From positions 16,064-80,063 of the forward strand of contig CAKOHI010000004.1 in the NCBI GenBank assembly GCA_934085585.1: 64,000 nt of DNA, given 5' to 3'. This stretch comes from an uncultured Bacilli bacterium (GTDB lineage Bacteria; Bacillota_I; Bacilli_A; RF39; UBA660). This document shows positions 7,176-34,937 of this stretch, in pieces (within the stretch, counting starts at the first letter, position 1; each line of letters begins with the position of its first letter). The translations under genes and the position numbers were made by a program. A model generated the notes under the pieces. It made no database searches. It was not told where the DNA came from and saw nothing but the letters and a program-made list of their open reading frames with translations.

Positions 7176-9178
7176 ATGGAAAATAAAAAGGCAAAAATAA
7201 TATCAATGATAGCAATTATTGCACTAGTTCTAACTGTTGTAACAGCAACATATGCTTATTTTCAAGCTCAAACTGGGGAAGGTTCACAAACAGATGTAAA
7301 GATAACCTCAAGTACCGTAGATACTCTATCTTTTGAAACAGGTTCTTCACTAACTTTTACTGCAGATCAAGATACATTTGCTAATGGTAAAGCAAGTTTA
7401 TCTGATACAACATTTGCTAAAGCTACTTTAACTGCAAATAATAAAACAAATACTGCCACGAATAATTATAATTTGTATTTAAATATATCAGATAATAATT
7501 TTACTTATACTCAAGATATAAGTACACCAGAATTATTACTTCAAATTGTAGATGCAAGTAATAATTCAATAACAAGTATAGATGGACTCGAATATAAAAC
7601 AGTAACAGATAATAAAAATACATCAATATCAGGATTTGATATAACAAATAAAACAGGATTAATAAATCTATTTACAAATAGAGAAATAACAACTACATCA
7701 AGTAAAACAGAAGAATGGACAATAAAGATAACATTTGTAAATTATAATAAAGACCAAAGTGGAAATGCGGGTAAAAGTTTTGATGGACAAATATTAATAA
7801 GTAAAGATACATTTGATAATTATACACCAAATACTATTAATACATTAAGTGCCACAAAAAATGGAACAAACTTAACAGTAAACTTAAATGTAGAACAAGG
7901 AAGTAATGAAATAGATAAGTATTATTATGCAATCGAGGAAACAAATGGACTTGCAATTTTAGATAATACAAGTAAAGTACAAAGATTAAGTAATAGACTA
8001 GCAGTAAGTAACTTAACATATGTAGAAAGTAGTTCAAGTTCACATACATTTACGAATTTAAATAGTACAAAAGATTATAAAGTATCAGCATATGTGATAG
8101 ATAAAAAGAAGATAAAAAGTAATACATATGAATATAACGTAAGTTCAGGTTCATATATATATCCAACAATTAGTAAAGTAGAAACAAGTACAACATCGAA
8201 TTCAATCACAGCAACAGTAACAGCCACCAAAGGAACAAATAATATATCAAAATATTATTATTCAATAGATAATGGAAGTACGTTTATAGAAAGTACAAGT
8301 AATATTATACATTTAGTAATCTTAATGGTGGAAGCTATAGAATAATGGTAAAAGTAATAGATACGAATGGCAAGTATTCAAATAGTTATGTGGTTAGTGA
8401 AAAAATAGAAGCAAGCCAAACATTAGCAAATTATGTCATATCACAATATAATGGAGTACAAGGAAATAATGGAATATATTATCATAATTCAAGTTTAGCA
8501 AATGGGGCAGGAGACAATTCATATAGATATGCCGGAGCAAATCCAAATAATTATGTATGCTTTGGAAGTGATGAAGAAATATGTCCGGATGATAATTTAT
8601 ATCGAATTATTGGAGTGTTTGATGAAAATGTTAAATTAATTAAGACAATTTCAGTGGGGAATATGGAATGGGCTAGTGATAGTCAAAAGACATATTTGAA
8701 TGGAGAATACATATTAAATTTAGGAATATATACAAAAAATATAATAAATACTATGTGGAAGACCGGTGGAAGTTCACCTGAAAATATTATAAATGTAGTA
8801 CCATCTGTAGTATATCAAAATGAAATAAAAAATCCAGAAGATGTTTTTACTAATACTTTGCAAATAGGGTTAATGTATGTAAGCGATTATGGTTTTGCAG
8901 CAAGTCCAAGCGCATGGACAACGAATTTGGAATCTTATAATAGTTCATTAATAACATCTGTAAATTGGTTGTATTTAGGTTTAAAAGAATGGACAATAAC
9001 TAAGGCTGGTGTTAATTATAGTAATGTATATCGAATTGATGATACTGGAACTATAATTTACGAATATAGTCGTGAGGATGGAAAGACAGGTGAAATAAGA
9101 CCAACATTTTATTTGAATTCGAATATATATTATATAACTGGTTCAGGTACTCAATCTGATCCGATTCGTATTTCATGA
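7176..9178 (+). pseudogene. Frameshifted paralog of the SipW-signal/TasA-like secreted protein family, with two extra Ig/FN3-like repeats
   Basis: ORFs 7176-8345 and 8345-9178 together are collinear with the 529/531-aa paralogs at 30908-34113. The first half has the signal peptide (..VTATYAYFQAQ) and N-domain; the second has the C-terminal NSYRYAG..LYRIIGV..SDYGFAASP..EWTI module. The reading frame switches near 8301-8308. The +2 frame upstream of the ATG at 8345 reads YYTFSNLNGGSYRIMVKVIDTNGK, which continues a repeat homologous to HTFTNLNSTKDYKVSAYVIDKKK in the first ORF. Confidence 0.75.
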
Positions 9179-10947: not shown

Positions 10948-12222
10948 ATGAATGGAAATGTAACATTACTTCCTGCAGATACTTATGTTGTAATAAATAA
11001 AAGTATTTTGTGTGATATTGATAGAAAATATTTAATTTCCTTTTATGAACCAATTATAGGTCATTTAGCTACATCTTTATATTTAACTTTGATTAACGAT
11101 TTAGAAAGTGAAAAACAAATATCAAGAGATTTTACTCATCATCATTTAATGAGTCTTTTAAAGGTGCCATTAAAAGTATTAAAAGAAGCTAGAGAAGTTT
11201 TAGAAGGTGTTGGGCTTTTAAAAACATATTATAAAGAAGGCGATGTTAATCAATATATTTATGAGATTTATTCACCATTAAGTCCGAATGAATTTTTTAA
11301 TCATCCAATTTTAAATATAGTTTTATATAATAACTTAGGTGCTACAGAATATGAATATTTAAAAAAGCAATATCAAAAAGTTAAAGTTGATACTAAAACG
11401 TTTATAGATATAACTAAAAAGTTAGATGATGTAATGGAAAGTGCTGTAAATATGCCAGTTATTGATGTGATTGAGAGAAGTATTAATGATATTGAAGTAA
11501 GTGATCATGTGGATTTTGATTTAATATTATCAAGTATACCAAAAGGAATTATTAATGAAAAAGTATTTACTAAAAAAACAAAAGAATTAATTAATGAATT
11601 GGCATTTATATATAAGATAGATACTTTAAAAATGGTGGAATTAATAAGAAGTGTTCTTAATGAATATGGTATGATAGATAAGAATAATTTAAGAATTAAT
11701 GCAAGAAGAATGTATCAATTTAATAATGGAGCTTTACCAACATTAATATATAGATCTCAACCAGAACATTTAAAGAGTCCTGATGGAGATAATTCAATGC
11801 GTGGTAAAATAATAAAAATGTTTGAAAGTATTAATCCGGTTGATTTTTTAAGAAATAAATATCATGGGGCTAAACCTACGAATAGGGATATTAAAATTAT
11901 AGAAAATTTAATTATTGATTTGGAAATGCCTCCGGCGGTGGTTAATGTTTTACTTGATTATGTTTTAAAGAAAAATAATAATAAGTTAGCTGTTAATTAT
12001 ATTGAAACAATCGCAGGTCAATGGAAAAGAGCAGACTTAAAGAATGCTAAAGAAGCTATGGATTTTGCTGAAAAAGAAAATAAAAAATTTACAAAGAGGT
12101 TGGATGTACCAAAAGATAAAGCTAATATGGAACCTGTTTGGTTTAATAAAGTTAATGAAAAAAGTGAAATGACTGATGCTGATAAAGAAGAATTAGAAAA
12201 TTTGTTGAAGGAGTTTAAATAA
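10948..12222 (+). CDS. dnaB: Replication initiation and membrane attachment protein DnaB (Bacillus-type, DnaD-like; not the helicase)
   Basis: The C-terminal DnaB_2/DnaD-like repeat (PPAVVNVLLDYVLKKNNNKLAVNYIETIAGQWKRADLKNAKEAMDF) and 1-nt overlap (TAATG) with dnaI match the B. subtilis dnaB-dnaI arrangement. Confidence 0.8.
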   Translation: MNGNVTLLPADTYVVINKSILCDIDRKYLISFYEPIIGHLATSLYLTLINDLESEKQISRDFTHHHLMSLLKVPLKVLKEAREVLEGVGLLKTYYKEGDVNQYIYEIYSPLSPNEFFNHPILNIVLYNNLGATEYEYLKKQYQKVKVDTKTFIDITKKLDDVMESAVNMPVIDVIERSINDIEVSDHVDFDLILSSIPKGIINEKVFTKKTKELINELAFIYKIDTLKMVELIRSVLNEYGMIDKNNLRINARRMYQFNNGALPTLIYRSQPEHLKSPDGDNSMRGKIIKMFESINPVDFLRNKYHGAKPTNRDIKIIENLIIDLEMPPAVVNVLLDYVLKKNNNKLAVNYIETIAGQWKRADLKNAKEAMDFAEKENKKFTKRLDVPKDKANMEPVWFNKVNEKSEMTDADKEELENLLKEFK

Positions 12223-16892: not shown

Positions 16893-16946
16893 CATAATCA
16901 CCTTAATATATTGTATGTTTTTAATGAAAAAAGGAATACTATTATT

Positions 16947-18881
16947 ATGAAAAAATTTATAAGTTTTGGTGTAATTGTAATGGTTTTTGTGCTTTTTGGA
17001 ATTAAATTAACTAATATATTATTTAATAATTCTTATTATGCAAAAAAATTAGATGAAAAAACTAATATTTATGTTAATGGCACTAGTGCACCTCGAGGAA
17101 GAATTCTTGATACAAATGGTAAGGTTTTGGTTGATAATATTGGAGTAAAGACAATTTACTATAATAAAATAAAAGGAATAAAAAGTAGTGATGAATTAAA
17201 AATAGCAGCATATTTAGTGGAAATTTTAGATGTTGATGAAGGTAATGATAAAGAGTTAAAAAGTTACTATTTAATAACTAATAATAATGGTAAAAATTTG
17301 ATAACGAAAGAAGAGTATGATTTGTTAGAAAAAAGAAAATTAACAAAGGAGGATATAGAAAATAAAAAAATAGAAAGAATAACTGATGAGATGATAAACT
17401 ATGATAGTACAACTAAAAAAATTGCTCATGTATATAATTTGATGAATAATGGTTATATTTATAGTAAAAAGGAAATAGCTAAAAATGTGAGTGAAGGTGA
17501 GTATGCTAAAATTATTGAAAGTAAGATTCCAGGAGTAACCGGGGAACTTTCTTGGGAAAGAGTTTATCCCTATGGTGATACTTTGAAAAATGTTTTTGGT
17601 AGAGTTGGTAGTATTACTAAAGAGTTAAAAAATGATTATTTAAATAATGGTTATGAACTTACTGATTTAGTGGGAATGAGTTATTTAGAAAAAGAATATG
17701 AAGAGTATTTAAAGGGAAAAAAAGCTAAATATAAAGTGGGTAGCGATTATAGTTTAACTAAAGTAAATGAAGAAGAAAAGGGATATGATTTAGTATTATC
17801 AATTGATATAGATTTACAAATGAAAGTTGAAGAAATAATAAAAGATAAAATAAATTTAGGTAAAAGGTATGGAAATACAGAATATTTTAAGGATGGCTAT
17901 GCTATTGTTAGTAATCCTTTGACAGGGGAAATACTTGCGTTGGGGGGACAGAGATTAAATGATGATAATAGTTTTAGTGATATTAGTTTAAATACTACGA
18001 ATAAATCTTATACAATTGGAAGTGCTGTAAAAGGCGCTACGATTGGGGTGGGTTATAAATATAATTTGATTACTCCGGGAGCTTTTATTAATGATGCTTG
18101 TGTTAAATTATATTTAGTGCCTGAAAAGTGTAGTTTTAAAAGACTGGGAAAAGTAAATGATTTGACCGCATTGGCTAATTCATCAAATTATTATCAATAT
18201 ATGATTGCTATAAAACTTACTGGTAATAATTATAAACCTAATGTAAAACTTAATGCTACGAAAGAACATTTTGATATATATAGAAATATGCTTGCTAGCT
18301 TTGGACTTGGTGTTAAAACTGAAATAGATTTACCTGGAGAAGAAATTGGAATAATTGGGTCTACTATTGCTGATGATTTACTTTTGAATCTTTCTATTGG
18401 GCAATACGATACTTATACACCGCTAGAAGTTTTACAATATATTAATAGTGTTGCTAGTGGCAAAAGAATGAAATTGAGCTTGATGAAAGAAATTAGAAAT
18501 AAAGATGGTGTAATATTAAAAAATGATATAAATATTTTAAATGATGTTGATTTAGATGAAGATAGTTTAGAAAGAATTAGGGAAGGAATGAGACTTGTTT
18601 TAAGTGAAGGTACTGGTAAGTTTTATGTTCCTCAAGGACTTGATTTTGCTGGTAAGACCGGAACAAGTGAATCATTTTTAGATACTAATAATGATGGTAA
18701 AGTTGATACTGCCACAATATCATCAACGTTTACAGGTTTTTATCCATCTGAAGATCCTAAATTTAGTTTAGTGGTAATAACACCGAATATTTCTCATAAA
18801 AATGGTAAAACAGATGCTTTTTATTATGGGGCTAGTAAAATAACTAAAGATATTGTTAATTTTTTAAATAGTAATTATTAA
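16947..18881 (+). CDS. Class B penicillin-binding protein (transpeptidase, PBP2/SpoVD-like)
   Basis: N-terminal TM anchor, a dimerisation domain, then SxxK (GSAVKG), SxN (NSSN) and KTGT (GKTGTSE). Confidence 0.88.
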   Translation: MKKFISFGVIVMVFVLFGIKLTNILFNNSYYAKKLDEKTNIYVNGTSAPRGRILDTNGKVLVDNIGVKTIYYNKIKGIKSSDELKIAAYLVEILDVDEGNDKELKSYYLITNNNGKNLITKEEYDLLEKRKLTKEDIENKKIERITDEMINYDSTTKKIAHVYNLMNNGYIYSKKEIAKNVSEGEYAKIIESKIPGVTGELSWERVYPYGDTLKNVFGRVGSITKELKNDYLNNGYELTDLVGMSYLEKEYEEYLKGKKAKYKVGSDYSLTKVNEEEKGYDLVLSIDIDLQMKVEEIIKDKINLGKRYGNTEYFKDGYAIVSNPLTGEILALGGQRLNDDNSFSDISLNTTNKSYTIGSAVKGATIGVGYKYNLITPGAFINDACVKLYLVPEKCSFKRLGKVNDLTALANSSNYYQYMIAIKLTGNNYKPNVKLNATKEHFDIYRNMLASFGLGVKTEIDLPGEEIGIIGSTIADDLLLNLSIGQYDTYTPLEVLQYINSVASGKRMKLSLMKEIRNKDGVILKNDINILNDVDLDEDSLERIREGMRLVLSEGTGKFYVPQGLDFAGKTGTSESFLDTNNDGKVDTATISSTFTGFYPSEDPKFSLVVITPNISHKNGKTDAFYYGASKITKDIVNFLNSNY

Positions 18882-19058
18882 TAAAAAAAGTTATAATAAA
18901 ATAGCTTTTTTTCTTTGTAAAATTATGATTTAGGTTTAAAACGGGGTTATAATATATCTAAAAAGTTAATAAAAATGGAAAATATTATCTAAATTAGTTG
19001 AAAAATCGTATAATTTTGGTATAATTAATAGAGATTGTTTAAGTGAGGAGGAATAATT

Positions 19059-19223
19059 ATGGCAAAAAAGGAAAATCGTAGTGAAGTAACTATGAGATGT
19101 TCTGTTTGTGGTTTTGAATTACGCCCTGTTAGTAAAAATAAAAAGAATACTCCAGATCGTCTTGAATTAAATAGATATTGCCCAAAATGTAGAAAGACAG
19201 TAGCTGCTAAAGAAAAGAAATAA
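19059..19223 (+). CDS. rpmG: 50S ribosomal protein L33
   Basis: Not in the ORF track (54 aa). My translation is MAKKENRSEVTMRCSVCGFELRPVSKNKKNTPDRLELNRYCPKCRKTVAAKEKK, with the CxxC...PDRLEL..YCPKC signature of L33. RBS GAGGAGG. Promoter-like TTGAAA/TGGTATAAT lies upstream (about 18998-19030). Confidence 0.9.
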   Translation: MAKKENRSEVTMRCSVCGFELRPVSKNKKNTPDRLELNRYCPKCRKTVAAKEKK

Positions 19224-19943: not shown

Positions 19944-20867
19944 ATGACTCTCAAGATAAAAGAAGTGCCTTCGAGAGATTCAATTATCAAAAATATTTTG
20001 ACATCTACGGATGCTGGACTTGATTATCTGGCGATGATTGTTTGTAAGGTTTTAGGCTTTTCATATGAAGATTTTACTTTTACTTTAATTCATCCCGTTG
20101 TAAGTGTTAATGAAAACATTGTTAATAGTGAAATAGATTTAGCAATACAAAATGATGAAGTAATAGTTAATATTGAAATAAATAGTTCAAAAGGAAGTAA
20201 AATAGAAAGAAAAAATAATAATTATATTTGTCAGTTGGTTTTAAGACAAACAAAAAAATCTTCAGATTACACTAATAAGTATAAGAAAGTGTACCAAATA
20301 AACTTGAATACTTATGGTGTAACTAAAGATAAGAGATTTGTTGTAATAAGTAAGATACTTGATATAGAATCACACGAAGAAATCCATCCAATGTTTGAAA
20401 TATACGATATAAATCTTGCAAAAATTCTTGATAAAGATTATACTATAGTTAAGGAAGACAAAGAGTCTTTAGAGAAATTACTTTATTTGCTTATATGTAA
20501 TGATAAAGAAAAGATGAAAGAAGTATATGATGGAGATGAGTTTATGGCCAAGATAATCAGAGAAGTAAATACCCAAACAGATGAATTTGATAAATTGCTT
20601 TTTTATAACAGAGAAATATTAGAAGACGAAGATTCAAGAGAAGAGGAAAGACAAAGAGCATTAGCTGAAGGTCGTGAACAAGGTCTAACCGAAGGTCGTG
20701 AACAAGGTCTAACTGAAGGCCGTGAACAAGGACTAACTGAAGGTCGTGAGCAAAGTAAACAAGATATCGCAAAAGCCATGTTAAGTGAAAATTGCGATAT
20801 AGAGTTGATTTCTAAAGTAACTAATCTTACTTACGATGAAGTAGTTAAATTAAAAGAAGAATTATAA
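19944..20867 (+). CDS. Rpn/YhgA-like PD-(D/E)XK nuclease family protein (putative transposase_31 family)
   Basis: The N-terminal ~200 aa resemble the Rpn/TIGR01784-type nuclease core (EIDLAIQNDEVIVNIEINS...). The C-terminus carries tandem EGREQGLT repeats typical of that family (from memory). Strong RBS AGGAGGTGG. Confidence 0.6.
   Translation: MTLKIKEVPSRDSIIKNILTSTDAGLDYLAMIVCKVLGFSYEDFTFTLIHPVVSVNENIVNSEIDLAIQNDEVIVNIEINSSKGSKIERKNNNYICQLVLRQTKKSSDYTNKYKKVYQINLNTYGVTKDKRFVVISKILDIESHEEIHPMFEIYDINLAKILDKDYTIVKEDKESLEKLLYLLICNDKEKMKEVYDGDEFMAKIIREVNTQTDEFDKLLFYNREILEDEDSREEERQRALAEGREQGLTEGREQGLTEGREQGLTEGREQSKQDIAKAMLSENCDIELISKVTNLTYDEVVKLKEEL
20667..20754 (+). repeat. 24-bp in-frame tandem repeat (3 full + 1 partial copy)
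   Basis: GAAGGTCGTGAACAAGGTCTAACC at 20667, 20691 and 20715, with a partial copy at 20739. It encodes (EGREQGLT)x3-EGREQ inside the Rpn-like gene. Confidence 0.9.
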
Positions 20868-30907: not shown

Positions 30908-32497
30908 ATGAAGGATAAAAAGAAATGGATATATTCTATATTATGTTTATTTATTTTTGTTGTGGGTGTTTCTTTTGCTTATTTTATTGCCCAAAATGGT
31001 AATGGTGCTGTTGGAAATATTGATGTAATATCTAATTCTTTAGATGATTTGAATTTTTCTGCTGGGGACCCAATAAGCTTAAAAATAACTCAATTTAATT
31101 TTACACAAGGGGGAGGCAATTTAAGTGATTCAACAACTGCTACTGCGTCACTTAAAGCCAATAATTCTACAAATAAAGCAAGTTATACGTATAATGTGTA
31201 TTTTGCTGTTGATTGGAATTTTTTTAAAGTGTCAAATAATGAAAATTATCCAGATATTATTTTAACGGTTATTGATCCATTGGGTAGTGAAGTAACATCA
31301 ATAGATGGTTTAACATATTATGATGGATCTACCACAAAAGGTGTTAGTGGTTTTGATATTACAACTTTTGAAGGGGTAAAAACAATTGCTGATAATTATA
31401 CAATTACTTCAAATTCTAGTACGACTTATACAACACAAGATTGGCAATTTAAAGTCACATTTATTAATTATGATTTTAATCAAAATTATGATGCGGTTAG
31501 AAGTATTAATGCAAATATAGTTATTCAAAAAGAAAAATTACCTAAAACATTAGCTGATGTTTGTTCAAATGGTGATAATTTAGCAAATTGTATAACAAAT
31601 TTAAGTCAAAAAAGTGTAAGTGGAGCAACAAATATATATTATCATGATTCAAATTTAGAAAATGGGGCAAATGACAATAGTTATAGATATGCTGGGGCAT
31701 CAGAACAGGTAAATAATTTTATATGTTTTGGTTCAACAACAAGTCCATGCCCAACAAATAATTTATATCGTATCATCGGAGTAATAGATGGCAAAGCAAA
31801 ATTGATAAAATATGATTATATGACAAAAGAAGAATTAGGAACTAATGGAGATTATCAAGGTGAAATAGCTATAAATACAGATTATTATAAAGGTAGCTTA
31901 TCATCAATTGGTGAATATTATTGGAATTATAAAGCTAATACAACAATAAATGATGGACAAGGTTCAAATACATGGAGCACAAGTTTATTTAATAAAACAA
32001 ATTTAAATACAAATTTCATAAATTATCTAGGAACAACATGGTCAAATAAAATAGCAACAACAACATGGAAAGTCGGAGGGAATATGTGGGACAATATAGT
32101 AAACAAGACTCCGTCTAAAGCATATCAAAATGAAATAGTAAATCCAGATGCAACAAATACTACAGATAATGCAACAATTTATAATGCAAAAATAGGTTTA
32201 ATGTATGCAAGTGATTATGGGTTTGCGGCTAGTCCGGGGGCTTGGACAATAAACTTGCTTAATTATTGGAATGATCTTTTAACAAAAAATAATTGGATGT
32301 ATATGGGGCTTTATGAATGGACTATTTCCCGAGATGCAAGCGATTCATCCACTGTGTTTCGTGTGCATCGCGGTGGTGATGTTTGTGCTTATAGTGCGTA
32401 TGGCCATCTTGGAGGACGTGTGTCTTTTAATCTTGAATCTTCCGTAACCTATAAATCAGGGACTGGAAGCATGAATGACCCAATAATTATAAATTAA
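30908..32497 (+). CDS. Secreted protein, SipW/TasA-type signal peptide + TasA-like N-domain + conserved C-terminal lectin-like module (paralog B)
   Basis: 529 aa. The N-terminus is MKDKKKW-hydrophobic-VSFAYFIAQNG. It is collinear with 32527-34113 and with the split gene at 7176-9178. C-terminal motifs: NDNSYRYAG, CFGS..CP..NLYRIIGV, IGLMYASDYGFAASPGAWT, and EWTISR. Confidence 0.8.
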   Translation: MKDKKKWIYSILCLFIFVVGVSFAYFIAQNGNGAVGNIDVISNSLDDLNFSAGDPISLKITQFNFTQGGGNLSDSTTATASLKANNSTNKASYTYNVYFAVDWNFFKVSNNENYPDIILTVIDPLGSEVTSIDGLTYYDGSTTKGVSGFDITTFEGVKTIADNYTITSNSSTTYTTQDWQFKVTFINYDFNQNYDAVRSINANIVIQKEKLPKTLADVCSNGDNLANCITNLSQKSVSGATNIYYHDSNLENGANDNSYRYAGASEQVNNFICFGSTTSPCPTNNLYRIIGVIDGKAKLIKYDYMTKEELGTNGDYQGEIAINTDYYKGSLSSIGEYYWNYKANTTINDGQGSNTWSTSLFNKTNLNTNFINYLGTTWSNKIATTTWKVGGNMWDNIVNKTPSKAYQNEIVNPDATNTTDNATIYNAKIGLMYASDYGFAASPGAWTINLLNYWNDLLTKNNWMYMGLYEWTISRDASDSSTVFRVHRGGDVCAYSAYGHLGGRVSFNLESSVTYKSGTGSMNDPIIIN

Positions 32498-32526
32498 TTA
32501 TAAAATAATGAGGAATAGTGATTAAA

Positions 32527-34113
32527 ATGAGCGATAAAAAAAGATTAATAATTACAATAGTAGCAATGTTAATTTTAGTTGTTGGAGTTACTTTTGCATA
32601 TTTTATTCCACAAATAGGAGGTAGAGTTTTACGAAAACTTAATGTAGTTGCAGATACTCCCGATGATTTACAATTTTCAAGTAGTGGAATTGAATTAAAA
32701 CTTACACAATTTAATCTGGTTAAAAATGGTGAAAATTTAGAGGATTCTTTTGTTGCTAGTGCAAGTTTGAAAGCAAATAGTACAACAAATACAGCTACAT
32801 ATACTTATAATGTTTATTTTAATGTTAAAAGTAATAATTTTATTTATACTACAACTGAAAAAAAAGCGGAAATAATATTAACAGTTCTTGATCCAGATAA
32901 TAATGAAATTACTACTCTTGATGGGTTAACTTATTTGGATGGTTCAACTACTAATGGTGTAAGTGGCTTTGATATTACAACATTAAATGGATTAAAAACT
33001 ATTGCAGAAAATTATACAATAACGTCAAATTCAAGTAATGATTATAATTATCAAGATTGGAATTTTAGTGTTACATTTATTAATTTGGATACCAATCAAG
33101 TAGAAAATGAGGGAAAAGAATTAAAAGCAGAAATAATTATACAACAAGATAAATTGATGACATCTCTTGATGAGGTTTGTACCAATGGTGATAATTTGAC
33201 AAAATGTTTAACAGATTTCAGTTCTAAAAGTGTAAGTAGTATATCAAATATTTATTATCATGATGCAAATTTAGAAAATGGAGCAAATGATAATAGTTAT
33301 AGATATGCTGGTCCAAGTGATAAAGTAAATAACTTTATATGCTTTGGTTCAACAACAAGCCCATGTCCAACAGATAATTTATACCGAATAATCGGAGTAA
33401 TAGATGGAAAAGTAAAATTAATAAAATATGATTATATGACTACAGCAGAATTGGGAAGAGATGGAGATTATTCACAAACCTATAAAGAATGGGGAATGGA
33501 TAGTACTTATAAGGGAACATATGGAGATGGAGAAAGAATCGGAGTATATTATTGGAATTATAAAGAAACAAATAGTGCAACCAATACATGGAGTACAAGT
33601 TTGTTTAATAAAACAAATTTAAATACAAATTTCATAAATTACATAGGAGAAGAGTGGTCAAATAAGATAGCAATGACAACATGGAAAGTAGGAGGAAACA
33701 CATATGCAAATATAGCAAGTGCAATTCCATCAGTAGCATATCAAAATGAAATAACAAATCCAAATGCCACAAATAGTACTGATAATGCTACAGAATATCA
33801 AGCAAAAATAGGATTAATGTATGTATCAGATTATGGATTTGCAGCAAGTCCAAGTGCATGGACATTAACAATGGATTCCTATAATAATACAACAGCAACA
33901 AATAATAATTGGATGTATATGGGTCTTTGTGAATGGACTATTTCCCGTATTGTGGACGATTCGAATACTACGTTCCTTGTGTACGGCGATGGTGGCGTGA
34001 ACGGCTACGGCGTGTACTTCAGCTATGCGGGGCGTGTAGTATTCAATCTCGTGTCTTCCATAACCTACAAATCTGGATCAGGAACTATGAGTGATCCTAT
34101 TATAATCAATTAA
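32527..34113 (+). CDS. Secreted protein, same family (paralog C)
   Basis: ~528 aa (the ORF opens at GTG 32518; the ATG at 32527 gives MSDKKRLII..VTFAYFIPQIGG). It shares long stretches of near-identical DNA with paralog B, and is a tandem duplicate 20-30 nt downstream of B. Confidence 0.8.
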   Translation: MSDKKRLIITIVAMLILVVGVTFAYFIPQIGGRVLRKLNVVADTPDDLQFSSSGIELKLTQFNLVKNGENLEDSFVASASLKANSTTNTATYTYNVYFNVKSNNFIYTTTEKKAEIILTVLDPDNNEITTLDGLTYLDGSTTNGVSGFDITTLNGLKTIAENYTITSNSSNDYNYQDWNFSVTFINLDTNQVENEGKELKAEIIIQQDKLMTSLDEVCTNGDNLTKCLTDFSSKSVSSISNIYYHDANLENGANDNSYRYAGPSDKVNNFICFGSTTSPCPTDNLYRIIGVIDGKVKLIKYDYMTTAELGRDGDYSQTYKEWGMDSTYKGTYGDGERIGVYYWNYKETNSATNTWSTSLFNKTNLNTNFINYIGEEWSNKIAMTTWKVGGNTYANIASAIPSVAYQNEITNPNATNSTDNATEYQAKIGLMYVSDYGFAASPSAWTLTMDSYNNTTATNNNWMYMGLCEWTISRIVDDSNTTFLVYGDGGVNGYGVYFSYAGRVVFNLVSSITYKSGSGTMSDPIIIN

Positions 34114-34193: not shown

Positions 34194-34937
34194 ATGAATT
34201 TCATATATGATTTATATCAAAAAGATAATTTTACTTTAATACTAGTAGTTTTATTGGTTATATTAATAATTGCTTTTGTTGTTGTATACTTTTTTGGTAA
34301 AAAAGATCAAAAACTTGAAGAAACAAAAAGGTTACAAAAGATTGAACTTGATACATTTAAAGAAGAAAAACTTGAACCAGTTAAATTAGAAGTAAAAGAA
34401 GAAGTTCCAGTTATTAAAAATGAAGAAGTAAATGTAACAGAGTTTAAACCAGAAGTAAAAGAAAATGTTGATGTAATTGTTGATAATGAAGTAAAAAATG
34501 AAAATGAAAGTATTATTAAACCATTATTTAAAGATACTGAAGAAGAAAAAAGTCCGATTAGTATTAGTGAATTACCTGATATAAAAGAAGATGATAGTGA
34601 ACTTGTAAATGGTCTTAATAGTTTGGAAAGTATTAAAAATGAGTTTAATAGTATTGAAATTCCAGAAGTAAAAGAAGAAAAGGTGGAAGAAAAACCAATA
34701 TTTAAACCAAGTCCACAAATATTTAGCTCTGTTTTTGTTGACAAGAGGGAAGATGATATTGTAACTAATAATAGTAATAATGAAAAAGAAGTTGTTACTA
34801 AAGTAGAAGAAGAAAAAAATGATAATAGTACATCTAAATTATTTACTATAATAGATGATGAAGATGAAGAAATGGAATTACCTTCACTTAATAAAAATGT
34901 AGATGAAGTAAGTGGAGAAGTATATACATTAAAATAG
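34194..34937 (+). CDS. Membrane-anchored, E/K-rich low-complexity acidic protein
   Basis: 247 aa with one N-terminal TM ([20 protein letters not shown]). The remainder is dominated by E, K, V and N with loose EVKE/PEVKE repeats. The acidic tail is [16 protein letters not shown]. Confidence 0.6.

Follow-up and report, generated by a model that had tools for sequence, protein, structure and literature searches.

What process produced the two compositionally unusual blocks near the 3′ ends of a pair of tandem genes in an uncultured Bacilli bacterium, and is that process still at work? The genes, called here paralogs B and C, lie within a 64,000-nucleotide stretch of contig CAKOHI010000004.1 (the window, to which all coordinates without a locus name refer). 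An earlier note on this DNA had proposed that the blocks are targets of focused diversification, driven by a diversity-generating retroelement (DGR) encoded elsewhere, by gene conversion or by strong positive selection. We conclude that the blocks are almost certainly variable regions (VRs) written by a DGR, and we consider it probable that these VRs are now relics, held in this species as fixed alleles and shuffled by recombination. Focused diversification is thus upheld as to its DGR origin, but ongoing activity is unsupported, as the VRs are invariant and the cassette is absent from both the window and the syntenic site. The features on which the argument depends are listed here.

30908 to 32497, plus strand: paralog B, an open reading frame (ORF) of 529 amino acids with 64% identity to paralog C.
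32324 to 32424, plus strand: VR of B, 101 nt in register with the template repeats (TRs) of the family at loci L004 and L025; it encloses the block at 32333 to 32416.
32527 to 34113, plus strand: paralog C, 528 amino acids from the ATG at 32527; the listed ORF begins at a GTG at 32518.
33940 to 34040, plus strand: VR of C, 101 nt, enclosing the block at 33949 to 34032; its 3′ end is unlike both TR types seen.

Judging by homologues that begin MSDKKR, the true start of paralog C is probably the ATG at 32527. The block of B reads DASDSSTVFRVHRGGDVCAYSAYGHLGG and that of C reads IVDDSNTTFLVYGDGGVNGYGVYFSYAG; the coordinates and translations reported earlier for both were correct, as were the conserved flanks NNWMYMGL(Y/C)EWTISR and GRV(S/V)FNL, and the B/C alignment is free of gaps across the block region. 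Both blocks depart strongly in composition from the genes that contain them. Adenine makes up a fraction of 0.17 of the block in B and 0.18 of that in C, compared with 0.39 and 0.41 in the remainder of each gene (p about 2e-5), and the GC fraction is 0.50 and 0.55 compared with 0.29 in the remainder (p = 1e-4 and 2e-6, respectively). The GC spike that had been described in C is real, with the block lying in the GC-richest 84-nt window of the entire 64 kb, and the AT skew goes negative there.

Could ordinary paralog divergence, with positive selection or gene conversion and chance codon bias, account for such blocks without a retroelement ever having been involved? The amount of divergence is compatible with this. 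Many changes do fall within the block, but the statement that B and C differ at almost every codon was too strong, since 18 of 28 residues differ (36% identity) and other segments of the alignment, at approximately residues 26 to 60, 187 to 220 and 306 to 330, are equally divergent (33 to 36% amino acid identity). Because these three segments match its amino acid divergence, we regard the block as special by composition and not by divergence; at second codon positions its divergence of 0.54 is the highest of any B/C window. The predominance of NNY codons in the core likewise turned out to be genuine but modest (21 of 28 codons in B and 20 of 28 in C against approximately 52%, p = 0.03), and this enrichment alone is weak enough to leave room for chance. 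Gene conversion between B and C also occurs, as described below. The adenine depletion and the GC spike, however, are highly significant and unique within the two genes, and they speak against divergence of the ordinary kind.

Stronger evidence comes from relatives that carry a complete cassette next to a member of the same protein family. At locus L004 (Firmicutes bacterium CAG:460), the order is a family member, a 101-nt repeat that serves as TR (11187 to 11287), a small ORF, an Avd-like ORF and a reverse transcriptase (RT) with the motifs GNMTSQ...YMDD. All 23 mismatches between the VR and the downstream copy fall at adenines of that copy, the TR, which encodes ISRNADNSNNAFNVNNDGNVNNNNVNNNNGVRA. 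In Pfam searches of the relatives' cassettes RVT_1 was confirmed, and the bAvd-like match (E = 2e-6) fell under threshold. The small ORF between TR and Avd, of 124 to 145 amino acids (L004 11442 to 11879; L025 5312 to 5686), scores 22 to 27 bits for MutS domain I (threshold 20.6) and is the counterpart of the accessory gene that Wu et al. 2018 describe as "MSL" (PMC5758913).

A second RT (P0144), 78% identical to that of L004, was located in eight samples of a sister species (L022 to L029), and these show a cassette that is writing. The eight loci share one identical TR and have eight different VRs, each with 15 to 26 mismatches to the TR, and 149 of the 150 mismatches are at TR adenines. Outside the VR, the target gene differs at 3 to 62 of 1758 nt among the seven of these loci that are in register; L023 and L027, for example, are separated by 3 changes over the 1758 nt that flank the VR and by 21 over the 101 nt of the VR itself. 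TRs of the family combine AAC and AAT codons. In an alignment of 116 homologues, entropy reaches approximately 3 to 3.4 bits at the columns of the TR's AAY codons (residues 475, 478, 480, 481, 484, 486, 487, 490, 492 to 495 and 497 to 500), and these columns are filled by residues reachable from NNY codons. The interspersed scaffold residues A476, S479, A482, F483, V485, G489, V491, V496 and R503 are mostly below 1 bit (range 0 to 1.4), with several at zero.

We also found targets at a distance from any cassette. L040 and L041 are orthologous loci that encode full-length B/C-like proteins and have VRs that differ from each other, and there is no RT within 10 kb of either target. Compared with the L004 TR, their VRs have 20 and 26 mismatches, of which 46 of 46 are at A. 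Mismatches confined to adenines at targets with no RT within 10 kb mean that remote targeting occurs in this family.

We propose that the RT of these relatives copies a TR of mostly AAY (AAC or AAT) codons set between fixed scaffold codons and misincorporates at adenines. The copy would then replace the VR with the help of Avd and the MutS-like accessory protein, leaving NNY codons between the fixed scaffold codons. The process is documented at the level of the family, and we infer that it also wrote the blocks of B and C. Their adenine depletion, their GC spike and their stop-free sequence rich in Y, G, S, D and N would be explained by such writing.

Comparison of B and C with the L004 TR supports this reading. 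The comparison covered the first 87 nt of the TR, which contain 35 A sites and 52 non-A sites. C is mismatched at 20 of the 35 A sites and 3 of the 52 non-A sites (p = 1.2e-7). B is mismatched at 25 of the 35 A sites and 16 of the 52 non-A sites (p = 4e-4). As the L004 TR is heterologous, the adenine bias speaks to ancestry and does not identify a current TR/VR pair. It had been argued that the use of T in B and C in C at third codon positions rules out a single template. The argument holds insofar as B needs another TR, but C fits the L004 TR, whose mixture of AAC and AAT it follows at 15 of 16 variable codons (counted from the printed sequences), and mixtures of the two codons are usual in TRs of the family. 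For B, the source must have been another TR variant, unless the VR is simply older. Taken with the codon-for-codon coincidence of the variable columns with AAY codons of real TRs, the 49 of 52 non-A sites that C has kept, and homologues that are proven DGR targets, these data make an origin of the blocks without any retroelement extremely unlikely.

The 3′ end of the VR of C departs from the family pattern. It reads GCG GGG CGT GTA GTA, compared with GCG GGG CGT GCG T in VRs of the "AGR" type and in a TR-like sequence at locus L042; the last two codons of this AGR-type end are GTA GTA in C where GCG TCC stands otherwise. The L042 sequence, which belongs to another genome, was the sole return of a metagenome scan for a TR of the AGR type and was considered as the cognate TR of C, but it is shorter and is not cognate. 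It lies at approximately 760 to 860 on the minus strand, between a small membrane protein beside ftsH and a prepilin-type (GFTLIE) gene, and comprises 24 codons ending AAT GCG GGG CGT GCG TAG, with the conserved upstream and downstream TR flanks. The 760 nt that remain to the end of that locus hold neither MSL nor Avd nor RT, and L042 may be an orphan TR. A separate observation concerns the B orthologue of a sister strain (L021 9792 to 9911), where the block has a GC fraction of 0.41 and scaffold codons ending in A or T (TCA, GCT, GTT and GTA). This block appears to be a VR in which decay has gone further, or else the product of a TR with more A and T.

If a DGR wrote these blocks, where is its cassette? 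The DNA examined comprised the 64-kb window of this genome and 10-kb flanks of related contigs. The window contains no second copy of either block (blastn, word size 7), no run of AAY codons and no TR-flank motif (degenerate patterns), and neither RT, Avd nor MSL was found in it with a motif scan for [LIV]GxxxSQ plus YxDD or by tblastn with the L004 and L025 proteins. Thus the statement that these 64 kb hold no RT, Avd or template repeat was borne out by blastn, pattern, motif and tblastn searches alike. Two scans of viral contigs with TR-end and spacer motifs returned no matches, which argues against a phage-borne element. The window does contain the site at which the sister species carries its cassette, and there it is empty.

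18886 to 18947, no strand: empty site of 62 nt between the penicillin-binding protein gene (16911 to 18881) and rpmG (19059 to 19223).
19944 to 20867, plus strand: PDDEXK_2 nuclease/transposase-like gene (Pfam PF12784, E = 1.7e-9), located after efp, with an (EGREQGLT)n repeat.

At the same site, the sister species has a 5.6-kb island consisting of the target, TR, MutS-like gene, Avd, RT, an 81-amino-acid ORF and a PDDEXK_2 gene. The order at L025 is AP endonuclease, penicillin-binding protein, island, rpmG and efp; the window is syntenic with it, and homology breaks off at window position 18885, equivalent to L025 2735, and resumes at 18948, equivalent to L025 8359. Flanking genes of the window and the sister lineage are approximately 81 to 83% identical, which places the two lineages in different species. 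An exact look-up of EF-P in the window's species gave ten contexts for examination, including a 1.2-Mb scaffold that is 96 to 98% identical to the window, and the site is empty in all ten. The PDDEXK_2 gene after efp is missing in approximately half of the same-species contexts examined (L030 to L039), and an 87-amino-acid ORF takes its place in some strains. In the sister species a PDDEXK_2 gene closes the DGR island, and the gene may be linked to the mobility of the island.

The VRs themselves do not change in this species. Five independent samples (L016 to L020) differ by 0 to 2 single-nucleotide polymorphisms (SNPs) over the 3206 nt of the B-C region; the VR of C is identical in all five, and the VR of B is the same except for one protein-silent SNP at 32383. 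The earlier note had suggested looking for strain polymorphism confined to these codons, and beyond this one SNP none is seen in the VRs of the five samples. The exact paralog B protein, which is P0012 among the matches of a search seeded with C, occurs on 16 contigs, and the exact paralog C protein (P0124) occurs on at least 23. The VR of B is invariant in clusters P0012, P0131, P0132 and P0133, and members of the 90% clusters vary from B or C outside the VR only. Among C alleles P0127 is the farthest removed, with changes at 37 of 500 residues outside the VR and at 4 of 28 inside it. In DGR-positive strains at comparable background divergence, approximately 20% of VR bases differ.

These results suggest that VR turnover has stopped in the window's species, where the cassette is found neither in the 64 kb nor at its syntenic position between rpmG and the gene for the penicillin-binding protein. 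The competing view is that B and C are live remote targets, served by one or more cassettes elsewhere in the genome with two TR variants that are active rarely or conditionally, so that assemblies show the same dominant VR. The targets at L040 and L041 set a precedent within the family, C keeps GC-rich scaffold codons like those of a TR, and surveys report targets more than 100 kb from their RT (PMC5758913). DGR activity may also be episodic, according to the discussion in a preprint (bioRxiv 10.1101/2024.11.15.621889). Set against this is the constancy of the VRs over five samples and at least 23 contigs, where DGR-positive relatives differ at about a fifth of VR bases; P0127, at 7% protein divergence, retains 24 of 28 VR residues. 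VR strings also recur on different backgrounds, the GTA GTA at the 3′ boundary of C deviates from the AGR-type TR end, and the syntenic site is empty in every context examined. A weaker point is that none of the best 120 RT homologues lies on a contig as long as the species' 1.2-Mb scaffold. On balance, we consider live remote targeting improbable.

Several observations nevertheless weigh against our preferred account of DGR-written VRs that have become fixed relics. Assemblies represent a consensus, and low-frequency VR variants within a sample would stay hidden in them. The strains compared may be recent clones. The rate of non-A mismatches in B is high. Neither B nor C has a cognate TR in the window or in the 10-kb flanks of related contigs, and for this reason the description of B and C as DGR-written rests on homology and on adenine bias relative to a heterologous TR.

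How, then, do the fixed VRs come to be distributed as they are? The pattern points to recombination. A fourth paralog, D (P0084, L043), which lies elsewhere in the genome of apparently the same species, has a C-type scaffold and a static VR, with no RT or TR within 10 kb of it. Altogether, 62 distinct B-, C- and D-type proteins share 27 VR strings, which we group into about a dozen haplogroups, and identical strings occur on several backgrounds. Among these are both B-type and C-type N-termini, which indicates gene conversion between the tandem paralogs. C is itself a mosaic. Its 3′ half has 77 to 92% DNA identity to the CAG:460-type target at L040, while its 5′ half has 55 to 63%, and compared with the sister-strain allele at L021 some parts are 99 to 100% identical and others 62 to 77%. 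This mosaic structure supports at least some import. The alternative of gene conversion raised earlier is thus correct to the extent that recombination, including recombination between B and C, reshuffles the VRs, although these would have been written beforehand by a DGR.

In our account of relic alleles, then, the VRs would persist as a few fixed haplotypes that are moved by recombination between strains and between tandem paralogs. This state could have been reached by either of two routes: the lineage may have lost its DGR, or VR-bearing 3′ modules may have been recombined in from DGR-positive relatives. We speculate further that diversification in this group has two stages. A mobile DGR island with its PDDEXK_2 gene would write the VRs of several paralogs and then be lost. 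Gene conversion between B and C would spread the standing library of VR alleles, as would recombination across strain and species boundaries, and the window would be a snapshot taken after the DGR. We regard this scheme as possible but doubtful.

Which proteins are diversified in this way? B and C belong to a large surface-protein family of uncultured low-GC Bacilli of the human gut. A protein search with paralog C returned at least 7975 matches at E ≤ 1e-5, from genomes labelled uncultured Bacilli, Firmicutes bacterium CAG:460, Clostridium sp. CAG:609 and uncultured Tenericutes, and sample or isolate names, where informative, point to gut metagenomes. The architecture consists of an N-terminal hydrophobic signal/anchor helix, a beta-sandwich domain (approximately residues 45 to 210, confidently modelled) and, at the C-terminus, a DUF6273-like domain whose last part is the VR. 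Domain assignments were made on C and carried over to B by homology. The N-terminal helices of B (30908 to 31000) and C (32527 to 32620) end in a TFAYF/SFAYF-like motif (VTFAYF and VSFAYF), which we take to recall SipW-dependent signal peptides of the TasA/camelysin type. Among curated models, this motif has no NCBIfam match, and the one trace in Pfam is a weak match of the L025 target's N-terminus to Peptidase_M73 (E = 0.028). A profile search against sequences of the Protein Data Bank (PDB) returned only archaeal pilins for the N-terminal helix, at a non-significant E = 0.13.

Scanned against Pfam and NCBIfam, paralogs B and C gave no match, nor did a third family member, A, that is described below, and none of the three matches Pfam DUF6273 (PF19789, gathering threshold 23.5 bits) even at E ≤ 10. 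Two homologues exceed that threshold, P0263 with 31.5 bits and P0358 with 23.9 bits, and P0263 has 47% identity to the C-terminal domain of C (E = 2e-74). As a direct Pfam score is absent, membership of B and C in DUF6273 rests on transitive homology and on fold. A full-length AlphaFold2 model built from 116 close homologues was discarded, as the predicted local distance difference test (pLDDT) was below 50 in the C-terminal half and the Foldseek matches were meaningless. With a more diverse alignment, residues 232 to 528 of C (the last 297 residues; 33220 to 34110) were modelled at a pLDDT of 90.3 and a predicted template modelling (pTM) score of 0.90. The VR is predicted to form beta-hairpins at residues 244 to 271 of this model.

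The top PDB match of the C-terminal model is 9qa6, a DUF6273 N-terminal domain (Foldseek E = 4e-8, probability 1.0, 15% sequence identity), and in a viral structure library the model matches DUF6273 phage proteins and receptor-binding proteins. The C-terminal domain of Legionella Lcl and classical C-type lectins match weakly (E ≥ 0.4). In phages, DUF6273 is a published DGR-target domain of a C-type-lectin-like kind whose C-terminal end holds the VR (PMC10743442, PMC11792537); its likeness to C-type lectins is taken here from PMC10743442. A C-type-lectin-fold C-terminus had been suggested for these proteins, and in the model the VR does end a DUF6273-like domain, but the direct resemblance to C-type lectins appears loose and distant. 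From the match to 9qa6 we speculate that the ligands of the domain family might include a host immunoglobulin or glycoprotein.

The prototype DGR is that of Bordetella phage BPP-1 (Mtd/TR/Avd/bRT), and the relatives' cassettes resemble it in several respects: the TR is rich in AAY codons, mismatches are adenine-specific, the VR takes up approximately the last 100 nt of the ORF that is targeted, the shared 3′ end is rich in GC, and Avd and RT lie downstream. They differ from it in that the element is cellular and not phage-borne and has an extra MutS-like gene, and in that a DUF6273-like protein, anchored at its N-terminus, is targeted in place of a tail-fibre tip; the window, moreover, holds VRs only. 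DGRs that contain MSL make up "architecture D" of Wu et al. 2018, which includes the DGR of Legionella pneumophila (PMC5758913). The relatives share with it the combination of a MutS-domain-I-like ORF, Avd and RT, but the host lineage and the target family are other ones, and the window is without a cassette. The DGR of Treponema denticola serves tvpA and seven remote targets (summarized in PMC5758913). Similarly, a single TR in our family serves several scattered paralogous targets, with L040 and L041 served by an L004-type TR. In contrast to Treponema, in which RT and TR are in the same genome, B, C and D have no TR or RT found with them and their VRs are static.

Among gut phages, DUF6273 domains are DGR targets in Faecalibacterium prophages (PMC11792537) and in the tentaclins (PMC10743442). 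B and C share with these the domain superfamily, a VR that occupies the domain's C-terminal end and a predicted, loosely C-type-lectin-like fold. Unlike the phage receptor-binding and decoration proteins, they are chromosomal, stand in tandem, have an N-terminal membrane/signal helix and score under the Pfam threshold. The protein behind the top structural match is the IgA peptidase of Thomasclavelia ramosa (PDB 9qa6), whose N-terminal domain is annotated as DUF6273 (PMC12402451). It is a secreted protein of a low-GC gut Firmicute with the DUF6273 fold, but no DGR targets its domain, which is fused to an M64 peptidase and has 15% identity to the domain studied here.

Published work already describes DGRs, their MSL accessory genes, remote targets and targets with DUF6273. 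What is added here is a matched pair of occupied and empty cassette sites, with static VR haplotypes on the empty side. Neither Pfam nor NCBIfam directly matches this very large family of gut Bacilli, and the results suggest for it an origin and a likely role, as predicted ligand-binding surface proteins whose binding site is, or formerly was, written by a DGR. One genus also offers a natural comparison between an active cassette at a defined chromosomal site and an empty site with static VRs, which could be used to study the decay rate of DGR-written sequence, selection on fixed VR alleles, and how recombination takes over after the retroelement is lost. Surveys of DGRs that begin from the RT miss orphan VRs of this kind. 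In a genome rich in AT, past DGR activity is marked by a block of NNY codons that is poor in adenine and rich in GC.

Does the remaining family member in the window, paralog A, bear the same signature?

7176 to 9178, plus strand: family member A, as two ORFs (7176 to 8345 and 8345 to 9178) with a one-base overlap (TAATG, 8343 to 8347).

It does not: the segment of A equivalent to the VR has no DGR signature. This third paralog had been described as having ordinary A-rich codons there and as four residues longer. The equivalent segment (approximately 9003 to 9100) is indeed A-rich, but it is longer by approximately three residues. It was also considered as a TR and rejected, as it has no AAY run and aligns to the VRs only as far as the flank. 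In tblastn, each half of A is matched by the L025 target, and the second ORF (P0255) occurs in its exact form on 20 contigs, so that the split is not a sequencing error. The N-terminal half of A contains repeated KYYY(A/S)I motifs that are absent from B and C.

One further gene lies next to the tandem pair, downstream of C.

34194 to 34937, plus strand: membrane-anchored, charged low-complexity protein of 247 amino acids.

A gene of approximately 245 amino acids also follows the family member at the remote targets L040 (11703 to 12437) and L041 (11712 to 12443), where it encodes 243 to 244 amino acids; the likeness to the gene downstream of C is one of size and position.

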